From positions 1-64,000 of IMG/VR virus record IMGVR_UViG_2706795957_000001: a stretch of 64,000 bases of DNA, one strand, 5' to 3'. Position numbers and translations under genes: made by a program. This document shows, in pieces, positions 2,429-51,411 of this stretch. The notes below the pieces were generated by a model. That model was given only the letters and a program-made list of their open reading frames with translations. It did not search any database and was not told the DNA's origin. Every line of letters starts with the position of its first letter. Position 1 is the first letter of the stretch. Source of the DNA: a virus. Taxonomy: Duplodnaviria; Caudoviricetes.

Positions 2429-3223
2429 ATGCGAACCCTGCTGATCGGATCCGCTGCGGCGCAGAAGCTCATCCCGTCATGGCGTGACCCTAAGGACTGG
2501 GACTACTTCTCGGATGTGCCCCTCAAGTTCAGCAAGGATCCCGTCCGCCGCGACGTGTTCTGGCACGACGGCCTCGAGGAGATCCTGCCCGAGGGTACCT
2601 GCCGACCAGCCACCCTCGACGAGCTGTACACGATCAAGTTCAGCCACTCCTACTGGGAGCTGCGCAACGGGTCGTGGTCCAAGCACATGGCCGACCTCCT
2701 GAAGCTGAAAGAAGCTGGTGCGCAACTCATTCCGGAGTGGCACGATGCGCTATACAAGATCTGGGAAGATACCCACGGCAAGAAGGTCGTCGACCTAACG
2801 AAGGAAGCCGATGAGTTCTTCTCCGACGCCGTGAAGCGCATCTACGAGCACGACTCGATCCATGCGTCCATGGCATACAACGGTGACCGTCCGTTGTATG
2901 AGCAGTTCCTACTCCCCGGCAAGACGGTCCAGATGGACATGGCCGCGGTGTGGGACGCACCACTCGAGGTGCAGCTCAACATGTTCCGCGAGGAGATCTA
3001 CGTGACCGCCCTCGAGCGGCTCGTCATCCCCGCGGACTACCAGTACTCGCCGGGTCGCGCCTATCAGTGGGCCCTGCGACGCACGATCACGAGCCTCACC
3101 AAGGGTCGCAGCGCGCGATTCTTGGTAGAGCACTTCGATGTTCTAGCCAGACCGGACATCGACTACGTGAAGTTTCACCTGAGCAACAAGGACAAGCTGA
3201 TCACACTGAAGGAGGCAGCATGA
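2429..3223 (+). CDS. Pol-beta-superfamily nucleotidyltransferase-like protein
   Basis: N-terminal hhGS-x-DhD motif (LLIGSAA...KDWDY). Confidence 0.6.
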   Translation: MRTLLIGSAAAQKLIPSWRDPKDWDYFSDVPLKFSKDPVRRDVFWHDGLEEILPEGTCRPATLDELYTIKFSHSYWELRNGSWSKHMADLLKLKEAGAQLIPEWHDALYKIWEDTHGKKVVDLTKEADEFFSDAVKRIYEHDSIHASMAYNGDRPLYEQFLLPGKTVQMDMAAVWDAPLEVQLNMFREEIYVTALERLVIPADYQYSPGRAYQWALRRTITSLTKGRSARFLVEHFDVLARPDIDYVKFHLSNKDKLITLKEAA

Positions 3224-3600
3224 GTTACACCGCAGACGATCTCGACATCGCCCTCGCCAAGCTGTTTTACAACGGCCCAGAGCGGGACCGGGTCAAGTAC
3301 TGGTCGGACTATGCCGAAGAGGCGTGGGACCGGGTTGAGAGCCGAATCTATTTCGGCGACAAGTCGATCGAGACCGAGTTTGGCACCATCCACAAGGCCG
3401 ACGACTTCGGCGGCGAAGGCATGGGGGACCAGTACTACCTCGTCGTCTCGGTCACCGACGACGCCGGCAACGTGCGCTACTTCAAGCGCTGCGGCTACCA
3501 CCGATCCCATGACGGGTCCTACCTCGACGGCCCGACCCTCGAGGTTGAGCCAGTACAGCAGACTATCACGGTCTGGAACACCAAGAAGGAGAGCAAGTGA
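3220..3600 (+). CDS. Hypothetical protein (paralog 1)
   Basis: AAGGAGG SD; shares GGEG.GDQY...GNVRYF...DGPT.EV with the next gene. Confidence 0.8.
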   Translation: MSYTADDLDIALAKLFYNGPERDRVKYWSDYAEEAWDRVESRIYFGDKSIETEFGTIHKADDFGGEGMGDQYYLVVSVTDDAGNVRYFKRCGYHRSHDGSYLDGPTLEVEPVQQTITVWNTKKESK

Positions 3601-4058
3601 GCTACACCGTCAACGACATCAACGAGTACGTCCAGAACGGCGAGTCGCCGACCGAAGGCAGCTGGCGTGAGTTCGAGGAGCTCATCCAGGCAGATTCGGC
3701 GCCGGTCCGAAACCCGAAGCCCGAGGAGATCGGGGAGGGTGAATGGGTCGACGGAGGCGGGTACCTGCACGAGCCCAAGCAACACGGTCGTAACTGGTCC
3801 TACCGGGTCTACCGCCCCCAGGGTTACACCGGCCTCAAGATCCCCGGCATCGGCCTTGCCACCCTCGAGCGCACCCACGGCGGCGAGGGGGAGGGCGACC
3901 AGTACTGGTTCGTCTTCAAGATCACCGATGACGACGGCAACGTGCGCTACTTCCGGCGCGAGGGCTGGTACGCGTCCTACGACGGCGGTCACTACGACGG
4001 TCCGACCGTGGAGGTGCGACCAGCCGAGAAGGTGATCACCGTCTACAAGAAGATCTAG
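3597..4058 (+). CDS. Hypothetical protein (paralog 2)
   Basis: AAGGAG SD; same motif. Confidence 0.8.
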   Translation: MSYTVNDINEYVQNGESPTEGSWREFEELIQADSAPVRNPKPEEIGEGEWVDGGGYLHEPKQHGRNWSYRVYRPQGYTGLKIPGIGLATLERTHGGEGEGDQYWFVFKITDDDGNVRYFRREGWYASYDGGHYDGPTVEVRPAEKVITVYKKI

Positions 4059-4061
4059 TTC

Positions 4062-4091
4062 TTGCGTCTGACGTCCTCTCTAATGTACACT
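4062..4091 (+). promoter_or_regulatory. SigA-like promoter of the tRNA cluster
   Basis: TTGCGT-N18-TACACT. Confidence 0.5.
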
Positions 4092-4109
4092 TAGAGGTGC
4101 GCGTGGTTA

Positions 4110-4180
4110 TCCCCGAATGCTCGAGGGCTTGAGCGCTGCTGACGAGCAGAGTGTCGTGGGTTCGAATCCCACACGGGGAG
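4110..4180 (+). ncRNA. tRNA-like RNA 1 with non-canonical anticodon arm
   Basis: Acceptor tccccg/cgggga, D stem gctc/gagc, T arm gtggg-TTCGAAT-cccac; anticodon arm ctgc-TGACGA-gcag. Confidence 0.75.
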
Positions 4181-4184
4181 CTTT

Positions 4185-4257
4185 CTCCTGGTAGTCGAGT
4201 CAGGTTACGGCGCTTGCTGACGAGCGAGAGGCGTGGGTTCAAATCCCACCCAGGGGA
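4185..4257 (+). ncRNA. tRNA-like RNA 2 with non-canonical anticodon arm
   Basis: Acceptor ctcctgg/ccagggg, D stem gtcg/cggc, T arm gtggg-TTCAAAT-cccac; anticodon arm cttgc-TGACGA-gcgag. Confidence 0.75.
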
Positions 4258-4260
4258 CAT

Positions 4261-4332
4261 ATGGGCGTAGCTCAATTGGAAGAGCAGCGGTCTCCAAAAC
4301 CGCCGGTGTAGGTTCGAGTCCTGCCGCCTGTG
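4261..4332 (+). tRNA. tRNA-Trp(CCA)
   Basis: Cloverleaf; gcggt-CTCCAAA-accgc; no encoded CCA end. Confidence 0.9.
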
Positions 4333-4399
4333 CGAGGTGTCGATGTTTCTGGCTCCGGTTTCAAGTTGACTCCCAATAACACTGCAAACCGGGCAGCTC

Positions 4400-4481
4400 G
4401 TGGGTGACACACCAATGGTGGTGTAGCCGGCTGTAACCCGGTGGCGTTCTACGCGGGCAGGTTCGATCCCTGCCACCCACA
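4400..4481 (+). tRNA. tRNA-Tyr(GTA)
   Basis: gtgggtg/cacccac acceptor; gccgg-CTGTAAC-ccggt; long variable arm. Confidence 0.85.
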
Positions 4482-4600
4482 CGCAAGCCCCTGCCCTCTG
4501 ATGCCGCACCCGATTTTCGATCACGCGGCTCAAGGTATGGACCAGGCCGTCCTGATCAGATGGAACCAGTTCACACGATTCCGGGTCGTGGGGGCGTTCG

Positions 4601-4683
4601 GGAGAGTATGCCCACGGTGGGCGCGCGGTGTCGAAAGCCGCTATACGGTAACCATTCCGGGGGTTCAACTCCTCTGCTCTCCG
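4601..4683 (+). tRNA. tRNA-Ser(CGA)
   Basis: ggagagt/gctctcc acceptor; gcggt-GTCGAAA-gccgc; long variable arm; G73. Confidence 0.8.
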
Positions 4684-4718: not shown

Positions 4719-4801
4719 GGCGAGTTATCCAGTCTGGGACTGGCTACCGTTGCTAGCGGCTAGGCATCTTCGGGTGTGTGGTTCGACTCCTCAACTCGCC
4801 G
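4719..4801 (+). tRNA. tRNA-Ser(GCT)
   Basis: ggcgagt/actcgcc acceptor; ccg-TTGCTAG-cgg (weak stem); UUCG-capped variable arm. Confidence 0.75.
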
Positions 4802-4986
4802 CGTTGCCGGTACCGACGGTGCGGGAACCAACTCATATCGGGTTCCATCGGTGTCCTGGGCACTGACGCCAAAAGGCCCACTCATTCTGACGTTCAATCC
4901 CATTGAACAGCACGAAAGGTGAACATGCCGTTCCTCGACACCACCTGACTTCCCTACATGACTCGTAGGGAAGGAGGTGATTGGCT

Positions 4987-5271: not shown

Positions 5272-5349
5272 CGGCGTGTAGCTCAGATTGGTGAGAGCGC
5301 TCGGTTGAAACCCGAGAGGTCGCAGGTTCGAGCCCTGCCGCGCCGGCCA
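5272..5349 (+). tRNA. tRNA-Phe(GAA)
   Basis: ctcgg-TTGAAAC-ccgag; encoded CCA. Confidence 0.9.
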
Positions 5350-5350
5350 T

Positions 5351-5426
5351 TTCGACGTAGCTCAATTGGCAGAGCGTCCGACTGTTAATCGGATGGTTGA
5401 AGGTTCGAGTCCTTCCGTCGGAGCCA
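5351..5426 (+). tRNA. tRNA-Asn(GTT)
   Basis: tccga-CTGTTAA-tcgga; encoded CCA. Confidence 0.92.
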
Positions 5427-45207: not shown

Positions 45208-46424
45208 TGCCCAACATGATCGCACCCAAGGTTCTCAACTACGCGTCGCATATCGACGACAACACCATCGAGCAGGCCGGCGAGATCTCGACGCTGCCGT
45301 TCATCCATCCGCACGTGGCGCTGATGCCGGATGCTCACAGCGGCAAGGGGTCCGCGGTCGGCACTGTGATCCCGACCGTCGATGCGGTGATCCCCGCGGC
45401 GGTCGGCGTCGACATCGGCTGCGGCATGATCGGCGTGCAGACAGTGGTGCAGAAGAGGGACATCTACGACCTGGACCTGGCCGACCTTCGTGCGCGTGTC
45501 GAGGAGGCTATCCCGCTGTCTCCGGGCAACTACAACAAGAATGCCCGGTGGGCCGGTCACACCGAGGAGCGCATCGCACGGCTCGAGGAGATGGCCGAGC
45601 AGAAGGGCGTCGACCTCAAGCACTCGCCGAAGTGGCGTGAACAGCTGGGCTCACTCGGCGGTGGCAACCACTTCATCGAACTATGTGAGCAGATCGAGGG
45701 TGACGGCACCGGATCGCTGTGGCTGTTCCTGCACTCCGGTAGCCGCGGTGTCGGCAACAAGATCGCGCAGAAGCACATCAAGATCGCACAGAAGCTGTGC
45801 AAGCGCTGGCACATCGAGCTCGCCAACCCCGACCTGGCCTACCTGGCGTCCGGGACCGACGAGTTCGGTGCCTACATCCGCGAGCTCCGGTGGGCCCAGG
45901 CGTTCGCGCTCGAGAACCGCGCCGAGATGATGGACCGCTTCCTCAAGGTGTTCACCGACTGGCTCGCCACTGATCTCGACGCCGCCCTCGAGTACGACGG
46001 CGTCGAGATCGAGGAACGTCGCATCAACTGCCACCACAACTACACCGAGCGTGTCGAGATCAACGGCAAGTCCGTGTGGCTCACTCGCAAGGGAGCGATC
46101 GACGCTTCGGCGGGCCGCTACGGACTCATCCCCGGATCCATGGGCACCAAGTCCTACGTGGTCTGTGGCAAGGGCAACGAGTCCGGCCTGAAGTCAGCAC
46201 CCCATGGTGCGGGGCGTCGGTTCTCGCGCACGAAGGCCAAGCAGTTGTTCACCCTCGATGACCTCGCCGACCGCATGCAGGGCATCGAGTACCGACATGG
46301 TGCCGAGTGGATCGATGAGATCCCCGACGCCTACAAGCCGATAGACCAGGTCATGGAGGATGCCCGAGACTTGGTGGAGGTCGAGGCGGTACTCAAGCAG
46401 CTGCTCAACGTGAAGGGGATTTGA
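45207..46424 (+). CDS. rtcB: RtcB-family RNA ligase
   Basis: MPDAH, GVDIGCGM, GGGNHFIE, HSGSRG, HHNY, PGSMG, HGAGR, DE.P.AYK. Confidence 0.95.
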   Translation: MPNMIAPKVLNYASHIDDNTIEQAGEISTLPFIHPHVALMPDAHSGKGSAVGTVIPTVDAVIPAAVGVDIGCGMIGVQTVVQKRDIYDLDLADLRARVEEAIPLSPGNYNKNARWAGHTEERIARLEEMAEQKGVDLKHSPKWREQLGSLGGGNHFIELCEQIEGDGTGSLWLFLHSGSRGVGNKIAQKHIKIAQKLCKRWHIELANPDLAYLASGTDEFGAYIRELRWAQAFALENRAEMMDRFLKVFTDWLATDLDAALEYDGVEIEERRINCHHNYTERVEINGKSVWLTRKGAIDASAGRYGLIPGSMGTKSYVVCGKGNESGLKSAPHGAGRRFSRTKAKQLFTLDDLADRMQGIEYRHGAEWIDEIPDAYKPIDQVMEDARDLVEVEAVLKQLLNVKGI

Positions 46425-50994: not shown

Positions 50995-51028
50995 GCAACC
51001 CCCGCCTAGTACGTCAGGCGGGGGTTGC
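50995..51028. terminator. Bidirectional terminator
   Basis: 13-bp stem with A-run on the left and T-rich right flank. Confidence 0.7.
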
Positions 51029-51411
51029 TTTCTTCATTTCCGGGGCCGTATTTGACATCCGAGATGAATGTCCGGATCAGTTCGTCGATGGCTTTTCGCT
51101 GCCGGCTGGTCAAGACTTCCGAACCCACCGGAGGCTCATAGGGGGGCTGTGCCGCATCCCAGGTCTCGCCAAGCCAGTCCAGGACCCTCTTGACGGAGAT
51201 CCCCAGGGCCTCCGCGACGCGCTCGAGGGTCTGCCTTTCAACGAGCCGCGGGTCGGCCTTGCCGGTGATGAGCCGGACGACGGTGGTGGTGTGCAGACCG
51301 GCTTCCTTGGCCAGAGCGGTTGAAGCTCGGGTCACCCGTCCGTGGATTGGTGAGACCCTGCTTCAGCATCGCTTTGGCCCAAGGCTGCGGTACTTCAGTG
51401 GTTTGTCTCAT
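51006..51411 (-). pseudogene. Immunity repressor (XRE HTH), apparently frameshifted by +1 nt
   Basis: N-terminus MRQTTEVPQPWAKAM...GDPSF and HTH ALAKEAGLHTTTVVRLI are in different frames; 406 nt = 3n+1. Confidence 0.65.

Follow-up and report, generated by a model that had tools for sequence, protein, structure and literature searches.

Introduction

Phage tRNA clusters can encode stable RNAs that are not tRNAs, such as the species 1 and 2 RNAs of T4 and RNA1-3 of T5, and murine gammaherpesvirus 68 possesses tRNA-like RNAs that are not aminoacylated. A further mimic, b7a-tRNA, has reportedly been predicted for RtcB/Band-7 operons. YrlA Y RNAs, like b7a-tRNA, are tRNA mimics that lack a working anticodon and are tied to RNA repair (Chen et al. 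2014, PMC4201824). Phage tRNAs have been proposed to counter host tRNA nucleases, and those with changed anticodon loops to evade VapC, PrrC or colicin-type enzymes (van den Berg et al. 2023, PMC10264068). Non-decoding tRNA look-alikes of phages are therefore already known in principle, from the stable RNAs of T4 and T5 and from YrlA in phages.

Here we analyse two adjacent tRNA-shaped genes in a window of 64,000 nucleotides, which belongs to a complete actinophage genome of 93.6 kb and 61% GC. Both display the hexaloop UGACGA in place of an anticodon loop. They resemble the T4, T5 and gammaherpesvirus RNAs in being virus-encoded, tRNA-shaped or tRNA-linked, made together with tRNAs and apparently non-decoding. 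However, they share no sequence with these RNAs: the UGACGA class is distinguished by one specific hexaloop in many phage lineages, and in T4 and T5 no UGACGA is followed at 6-45 nt by a T-loop motif. The likeness to YrlA and b7a-tRNA extends to the presence of RtcB in this phage, but the acceptor end is closed in YrlA and free in the mimics, and RtcB is absent from the genomes of other UGACGA members. The YrlA model (RF02553) reaches 30.2 bits against a threshold of 69, in a match spanning the second copy and the adjacent tRNA-Trp. The complete 93.6-kb genome holds neither a TROVE (Ro60) nor a Band-7/SPFH match; with b7a-tRNA, which was compared by gene neighbourhood, the defining adjacency is lacking here, RtcB lying 41 kb off. 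Nuclease-evading phage tRNAs share with the mimics the actinophage tRNA cluster, the altered anticodon loop and the setting of a conflict over host tRNA cleavage, but carry point changes in 7-nt decoding loops, whereas the loop of the mimics is shortened, sealed and uniform.

The two mimics and their operon

Among cultured phages, the closest relatives come from Gordonia terrae and belong to the genera Oneupvirus (BrutonGaster) and Smoothievirus (ClubL, Culver, Cucurbita and others). In the window, the stop codon of the upstream gene at 4058 is followed by a promoter-like block, by mimic copy 1 (4110-4180) and copy 2 (4185-4257), and then by ordinary tRNA genes, all on the plus strand. The block comprises TTGCGT (4062-4067) and TACACT (4086-4091) separated by 18 nt, and together with the overlapping 19-nt palindrome CTCTAATGTACACTTAGAG (4078-4096) it extends over 4062-4096. 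By its position it would start the transcript of the tRNA operon a few bases 5' of copy 1. The earlier claim that the two genes are the first units after the cluster promoter is thus plausible: the block is kept in five relatives (BrutonGaster, Culver, WilliamBoone, JonJames and the metagenomic L809), but a simple consensus sigma-70 scan does not call it. The palindrome, which overlaps the putative -10 element and is likewise kept in relatives, resembles an operator and suggests repressor control of the tRNA operon. A look-up of sequencing runs that contain this DNA listed DNA runs of the probable source study and no RNA run.

The ordinary tRNA genes of the operon are tRNA-Trp (4261-4333, starting 3 nt 3' of copy 2), tRNA-Tyr (4400-4482), tRNA-Ser(CGA) (4600-4683), tRNA-Ser(GCU) (4719-4802), tRNA-Phe (5272-5349) and tRNA-Asn (5351-5426). 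This set was obtained with ARAGORN and Infernal/Rfam, and the relatives are annotated with the same one; its members (Trp, Ser and others) match known mycobacterial VapC targets. The class-II tRNA-Ser(CGA) was recognised by its loop GUCGAAA and its homology to the annotated tRNA-Ser(cga) of the relatives, being missed by ARAGORN and found by Infernal only as a weak tRNA-Sec-clan match (32 bits). Elsewhere in the window, an XRE-type repressor gene (about 51006-51411, minus strand) is interrupted by a single additional C, in AAC-CGC near 51318-51319, and its BrutonGaster homologue is annotated as a single gene. We see no link between this split gene and the tRNA mimics.

By direct reading of the sequence and by MFE folding, both copies have a 7-position acceptor stem, a textbook T arm and a cloverleaf fold. 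Copy 2 has an acceptor stem (4185-4191/4250-4256) with one U.G pair, a canonical D arm (4194-4211), the tertiary-core nucleotides U8, A14 and G18G19, a UGACGA hairpin at 4213-4228 (stem 4213-4217/4224-4228, loop 4218-4223), a 4-nt variable loop, a T arm at 4233-4249 and the discriminator A4257. The acceptor stem of copy 1 (4110-4116/4173-4179) consists of six pairs and an A.A opposition; its UGACGA hairpin spans 4136-4149 (stem 4136-4139/4146-4149, loop 4140-4145), its T arm 4156-4172, and its discriminator is G4180. Its MFE is -32.3 kcal/mol (z -2.65). CCA is encoded in neither copy. The original prediction of a complete tRNA shape holds for the acceptor and T arms of both copies and for the D arm of copy 2. 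Copy 1 is less tRNA-like than this implied, because it has A8 in place of U8, so that U8/A14 is lost, and because its D arm is an atypical hairpin (4119-4134) of 6 bp with a 4-nt loop. Under the Rfam tRNA model (RF00005, Infernal) copy 2 reaches 44.1 bits with a single loop position deleted; copy 1 stays at 23.5 bits, short of the gathering score of 29.

At the anticodon position of both copies a C-G pair closes the 6-nt loop UGACGA. Reading the region directly in the 7-nt register, CUGACGA, leaves a G.G closing pair in both, which bears out that no 7-nt register pairs; the GACG tetraloop proposed as an alternative is recovered as well, since an extra U-A pair reduces the hexaloop in the MFE folds. 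ARAGORN reports copy 2 as 'tRNA-??? (ac)', with a two-base anticodon in a 6-nt loop. The expectation of an undetermined or pseudogene call was right for this copy but not for copy 1, which is miscalled Ser(gct) through a different and implausible fold. A scan of the phage's own genome finds the UGACGA hairpin in these two units only.

With canonical tRNAs (RF00005) the mimics share the 7-bp acceptor, the T arm GUUCRAAUC, the cloverleaf, the location in a tRNA operon, a GAC triplet in the loop and, in copy 2, the nucleotides U8, A14 and G18G19. They differ by the C-G-closed loop of 6 nt in contrast to the 7-nt loop Y32 U33 NNN R37 N38 on a 5-bp stem, by a loop that is fixed beyond the triplet, by the score of copy 1 below the Rfam threshold, and by sizes and wirings in the family that are not those of tRNAs. 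The nearest tRNA by loop sequence is tRNA-Val(GAC), though GAC lies in a 6-nt loop in the mimics and only copy 2 has A73.

The leading position in related phages

Copy 1 is the positional counterpart of gene 19 of Smoothievirus, which is identical in 17 phage records and occupies the first position 3' of the same promoter. This gene carries UGACGA on a different stem (GAGAC-UGACGA-GUCUU) and has a long variable arm in addition; it is annotated as tRNA-OTHER, as 'tRNA-?(Val|Arg)(gacg)' and once, in Aphelion, as tRNA-Val. A metagenomic lineage (L809; L104) possesses a Smoothie-type gene with a compensated T stem, 4 nt 5' of tRNA-Trp, and the flanking nucleotidyltransferase-like DUF7275 protein of L809/L810 is 78% identical to that of the window. 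When the two copies themselves were compared with cultured phages by megablast and blastn, only the BrutonGaster promoter region matched.

Other relatives fill the same slot differently. BrutonGaster gene 11 and WilliamBoone gene 18 are odd tRNA-like genes of another kind, and JonJames has yet another element. Conservation of the loop in related phages, which had been named as a check, is therefore partial: Smoothievirus gene 19 and L809 keep UGACGA, but the type is found at the leading slot in three of the six lineages of the phage group. A leading non-canonical tRNA-like gene is constant across the group, and the UGACGA type varies by lineage.

The second odd class includes BrutonGaster gene 11 (L001:1705-1784), WilliamBoone gene 18 (L108:1740-1826) and Smoothievirus gene 20 (L003:1445-1525). 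Its acceptor, D and T arms are normal; at its centre, an A-rich unpaired stretch comes after a small GC hairpin (GCGGUG..ACCG). One locus, L073, unites a hairpin of this GCGGUG..ACCG type with a UGACGA hairpin. Smoothievirus and Yvonnevirus furthermore have a conserved non-coding segment of about 250 nt between the first and the next tRNA-like gene (Culver, L003:1185-1440; JonJames, L109:~740-1000), which matches no Rfam family and does not occur in the window.

Recurrence of the hexaloop in unrelated phages

IMG/VR was scanned for CUGACGAG followed by a T-loop motif at 8-38 nt, which gave 89 matches, and these were filtered for a 5-bp T stem, an acceptor stem with 6/7 or 7/7 pairs, and a 6-nt loop closed by an uninterrupted run of at least 4 pairs. 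Among the 53 CUGACGAG matches in a tRNA frame, 20 have at least 4 contiguous pairs closing the hexaloop. They fall into about 10 unrelated phage families, on contigs of 34-64% GC, in which the hairpin lies just 5' of the T arm within four architectures. The permuted control loops UGAGCA and UACGGA yielded no hairpin in the same IMG/VR scan (0/28 and 0/33).

Individual loop positions were then left free, so that the specificity of the hexaloop was assessed at positions 2-5; for three scans of the whole analysis the figures hold among the matches listed. With position 4 free, hairpins occur with C only (17 versus 0/63 among the matches listed), a C tally that includes loci from the earlier CUGACGAG scan; by our estimate the listed matches of the position 4 scan itself hold about 3-4 hairpins among 12 with C and none among about 100 others. 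The variants with A at position 4 are ordinary tRNA-Phe with a 7-nt loop. The complete scan with position 5 free finds hairpins with G only (17 versus 0/25), and with positions 2-3 free, GA accounts for 5 of 11 as compared to at most 3 ambiguous cases among 93 others. When the closing pair is left free, UGACGA hairpins also appear with G-C, A-U and U-A closers. The constant element is the loop, not the closing C-G pair. Because closers other than C-G occur, the count of about 10 families is a lower bound and the definition of the motif is provisional.

In a set of 18 members every pair type occurs in the stem, whereas the loop is invariant. In these stems 83% of cells are paired compared to 54% in shuffles, and none of 500 shuffles reaches the observed value. 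As the 18-member set was pre-selected for hairpins, we place the evidential weight on the control loops.

The hairpin is set in four architectures. In type A, which includes the window copies, L020, L034 and mini forms of 63 nt (for example L079), it takes the anticodon position within a class-I-like cloverleaf, and type B adds a long variable arm (Smoothievirus gene 19, L026, L035). In type C (L073, L105, L075) the UGACGA hairpin stands as the variable arm and leaves the anticodon position to another arm. Type D comprises RNAs of 141-144 nt with an acceptor stem, a T arm, an encoded CCA and the hairpin directly 5' of the T arm (the L055 family). Judged by their predicted structures, types C and D are, like the mini forms, unable to act as ordinary decoders. 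Several members lie inside tRNA arrays (L026, L034, L079).

We propose to delimit the class as acceptor-closed RNAs of phage genomes in which UGACGA caps a hairpin with 4 bp or more and in which this hairpin is separated from the T arm on its 3' side by 0-6 nt (or one extra arm). Both window copies have these features; the other members are Smoothievirus gene 19, L809, L020/L043, L026, L034, L035, L051, the L055 family, L067, L073, L092 and L105. The L055 family itself consists of seven contigs of uncultured phages (L055, L072, L078, L083, L090, L091, L100) of up to 233 kb, whose RNAs have a UGACGA hairpin of 7-8 bp and a large 5' insertion, and match neither Rfam nor cultured phages.

A different group among the CUGACGAG matches is formed by jumbo-phage tRNAs with long variable arms (L041, L046, L054, L057, L081, L103, L107, L042), in which the motif straddles the boundary between anticodon stem and variable arm. 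ARAGORN calls them Lys(UUU), Asn(GUU) and Trp(CCA); a long variable arm is normally confined to Leu, Ser and Tyr tRNAs.

Distribution in cellular genomes

No tRNA-like gene with a UGACGA 6-nt hairpin was found in 401 Mycobacteriales genomes, where the two motif matches are a chance match in a coding region and an ordinary tRNA-Ser. Likewise, no such gene occurs among the first 120 matches listed for bacteria and archaea at one genome per species. The matches listed are chance matches, ordinary tRNAs and archaeal tRNA-Val(GAC), which carries CUGACGA as a canonical 7-nt loop. In the samples searched, the UGACGA motif is a phage feature.

Rfam has no family for the UGACGA-capped class, and our literature search found no paper on a UGACGA or CUGACGAG loop of this kind or on six-nucleotide anticodon loops. 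We are seemingly dealing with an undescribed class of phage RNAs, of which the cultured members are annotated just as tRNA-OTHER or Undet.

Nature of the mimics and alternative explanations

What is established is an RNA motif within a tRNA frame that is maintained, sequence-specific and, in the samples searched, restricted to phages. In relatives and in about 10 unrelated lineages the hexaloop is identical while its stems differ and co-vary, and control loops yielded no such hairpin at all, which argues for selection and against decay, as the original prediction had it. Non-decoding mimicry gains support from the same data, the loop being fixed at the tested positions 2-5 and lacking a 7-nt register. 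It is highly probable that both window genes are selected, non-decoding tRNA mimics of one class. As an overall explanation we favour a phage-restricted class of such mimics with a host-directed role as decoy or ligand, tentatively and at somewhat less than an even chance.

An improbable alternative is that the genes serve as processing or stabilising handles, which recruit RNase P and RNase Z at the 5' end of the operon transcript and have no role after cleavage. Copy 1 comes first 3' of the conserved promoter, with a leader of a few bases, and an odd tRNA-like gene leads the operon in every relative, whatever its central domain. However, acceptor and T arms would suffice for this purpose, so that an invariant hexaloop in unrelated phages is left unexplained; the next gene is a tRNA that supplies the same signals, and many members of the class lie within arrays or alone.

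We give a still lower probability to the possibility that the mimics are working decoders, either as tRNA-Val(GAC) with a compact 6-nt loop without nucleotide 32, or with an 8-nt loop that reads a quadruplet. In the latter variant the C-G pair would be opened and GACG would pair with CGUC, perhaps in a nuclease-proof tRNA-Val. Loop positions 2-4 are always GAC, and C plus UGACGA equals the canonical loop of the archaeal tRNA-Val(GAC) mentioned above; we keep a valine-related reading alive, as ligand of valyl-tRNA synthetase (ValRS) or as odd decoder, because of this core and this identity. ARAGORN calls L020 and L034 tRNA-Val and the Smoothie-type gene '(gacg)', the Aphelion gene is annotated accordingly, and L034 also permits a 7-nt register with 4 pairs. 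The identity elements of ValRS are A35, C36 and A73, and copy 2 has A73, the Val discriminator. Yet the 7-nt register closes with G.G or A.G in the window copies and most members, and position 5 (G37) is fixed too, whereas the loop of bacterial tRNA-Val(GAC) is CUGACAC, with A37. The discriminators differ between the copies (G73 in copy 1, A73 in copy 2), copy 1 is without U8/A14, and some members are 63 nt long, bear the hairpin as a variable arm or hold it inside a 141-nt RNA. The one known frameshifted gene of the phage does not call for such a decoder either: a tie to the repressor near 51318 was considered and rejected, as the skip is needed at AAC-C (AAC-C/CGC), not at CGUC or GUCN.

Similarly improbable is that the mimics are cofactors or substrates of the RtcB or the MenT-like nucleotidyltransferase of the phage, comparable to YrlA or the predicted b7a-tRNA. 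The nucleotidyltransferase gene (2429-3223, plus strand; DUF7277+DUF7275 in Pfam) lies two genes upstream of the operon, and the synteny of nucleotidyltransferase, small ORFs, promoter and tRNA-like gene holds in the phage group. Its product is predicted to have a MenT/AbiEii-like fold and shows a G-S...D-x-D motif in which G7, D23 and D25 are invariant and S8 is nearly so. An AF2 model (pLDDT 92, alignment of 32 sequences) finds its best PDB matches in MenT4 (Z 7.2), TglT/MenT3 (Z 6.6) and MenT1 (Z 6.5), all below the level that the tool deems safe; Foldseek gives MenT1 a probability of 0.9. The earlier assignment of the upstream gene as a MenT-like nucleotidyltransferase is consistent with this modelled fold, at modest Z values. 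All three are MenT toxins of M. tuberculosis, and such toxins are known to modify tRNA 3' ends. The two small ORFs downstream (3220-3600 and 3597-4058, plus strand) are paralogues, with cross-matching PHROGs 18295 and 8206, and together with 2429-3223 they may form a phage or prophage nucleotidyltransferase module that acts on tRNA ends.

For RtcB, tRNA-like RNAs have been proposed as helpers (bioRxiv 10.1101/312249). The RtcB gene of this phage, previously referred to as neighbouring, is located at 45273-46418, 41 kb from the mimics; the genome has no gene for the Ro60 or Band-7 partners, and the YrlA model stays far below its threshold. The DUF7275 family (781 matches) is common in actinobacterial prophages, and in L812 and L813 its genes have no tRNA gene nearby. 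Homologues of RtcB, DUF7275 and AbiEii are missing from five further phage contigs with UGACGA, of which two are complete; five control contigs are likewise without RtcB, and no neighbouring protein family is shared across the flanks of unrelated member loci. The proposal that the mimics are substrates of the phage RtcB or nucleotidyltransferase is thus not supported as a general explanation. Since these enzymes are absent from other contigs and no flanking protein is shared, a phage-encoded partner does not explain the class, which leaves a conserved partner in the host or a role at the RNA level alone.

That the two genes are decaying duplicates of tRNA genes is very improbable. The Rfam score of copy 1 under the threshold, its loss of U8/A14 and the variable slot among relatives speak for decay, but the stems that carry this one loop are different and compensated, between the two copies as well as in relatives and unrelated phages, and the control loops gave zero hairpins. 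A single recently spread sequence is disfavoured by the range of 34-64% GC and by the different bodies of the IMG/VR matches. Two known RNA classes were also considered and rejected. CUGACGAG fits the CUGANGA core of hammerhead ribozymes, but stem II and the GAAA partner are missing and Rfam gives no match; the tmRNA detection of ARAGORN finds neither a tmRNA nor a two-piece tmRNA.

Proposed mode of action

Returning to the favoured explanation, a phage-restricted class of non-decoding mimics directed at the host, the following course of events can be envisaged. The mimics would be transcribed first in the tRNA operon, would be excised by RNase P and RNase Z in the same way as their tRNA neighbours, and would receive CCA from a host enzyme. 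The intact 'elbow' of acceptor and T arm would admit them to tRNA-handling proteins, and the sealed 6-nt loop would bar them from normal decoding and present a fixed sequence to a partner. In this manner they could soak up or misdirect a tRNA-binding enzyme or nuclease. Because the same six bases occur in phages of very different hosts, without a shared neighbour protein, the most probable partner is a host component that is conserved.

We chose the decoy role in view of the tRNA-cluster setting (PMC10264068), the genes for tRNA repair and for a MenT-like enzyme, and the phage-only distribution. Taken by itself, a mechanism as decoy or competitive ligand in the phage-host conflict over tRNAs is possible but rather doubtful. 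A decoy that acts through the acceptor end alone needs no fixed loop, and it is unlikely that one defence nuclease is shared by the hosts of contigs of 34-64% GC. The UGACGA type is also dispensable within the phage group, as the slot holds the other odd tRNA-like gene in BrutonGaster and WilliamBoone.

A more general, though unlikely, possibility is that the hexaloop of these widespread phage RNA effectors addresses a universal host component, which would be titrated or jammed without decoding. One candidate that fits is valyl-tRNA synthetase, the reader of A35 and C36 of GAC. As far as complementarity goes, helix 34 of 16S rRNA fits as a second candidate: GCUGACGA, present in both copies, is exactly complementary to the conserved helix-34 strand UCGUCAGC, a sequence confirmed in E. 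coli 16S. The rRNA match alone carries little weight, because by chance about two in three 6-mers would find a complement within 4.5 kb of rRNA.

Implications

Current views cast phage tRNA genes as weapons in the conflict over host tRNA cleavage, and tRNA-shaped genes annotated 'tRNA-OTHER' or 'Undet' are usually dismissed as pseudogenes. The invariant hexaloop provides a handle on such genes: it defines a searchable family, a target for mutation at one site and a bait for the partner. The question is directly testable, as cultured members of the class are available on G. terrae 3612 (Gordonia phages Smoothie, ClubL, Cucurbita and others). Should the partner turn out to be a defence enzyme, the mimics would constitute an RNA anti-defence factor; should it be a core component of translation, they would represent a new route by which phages take over translation.
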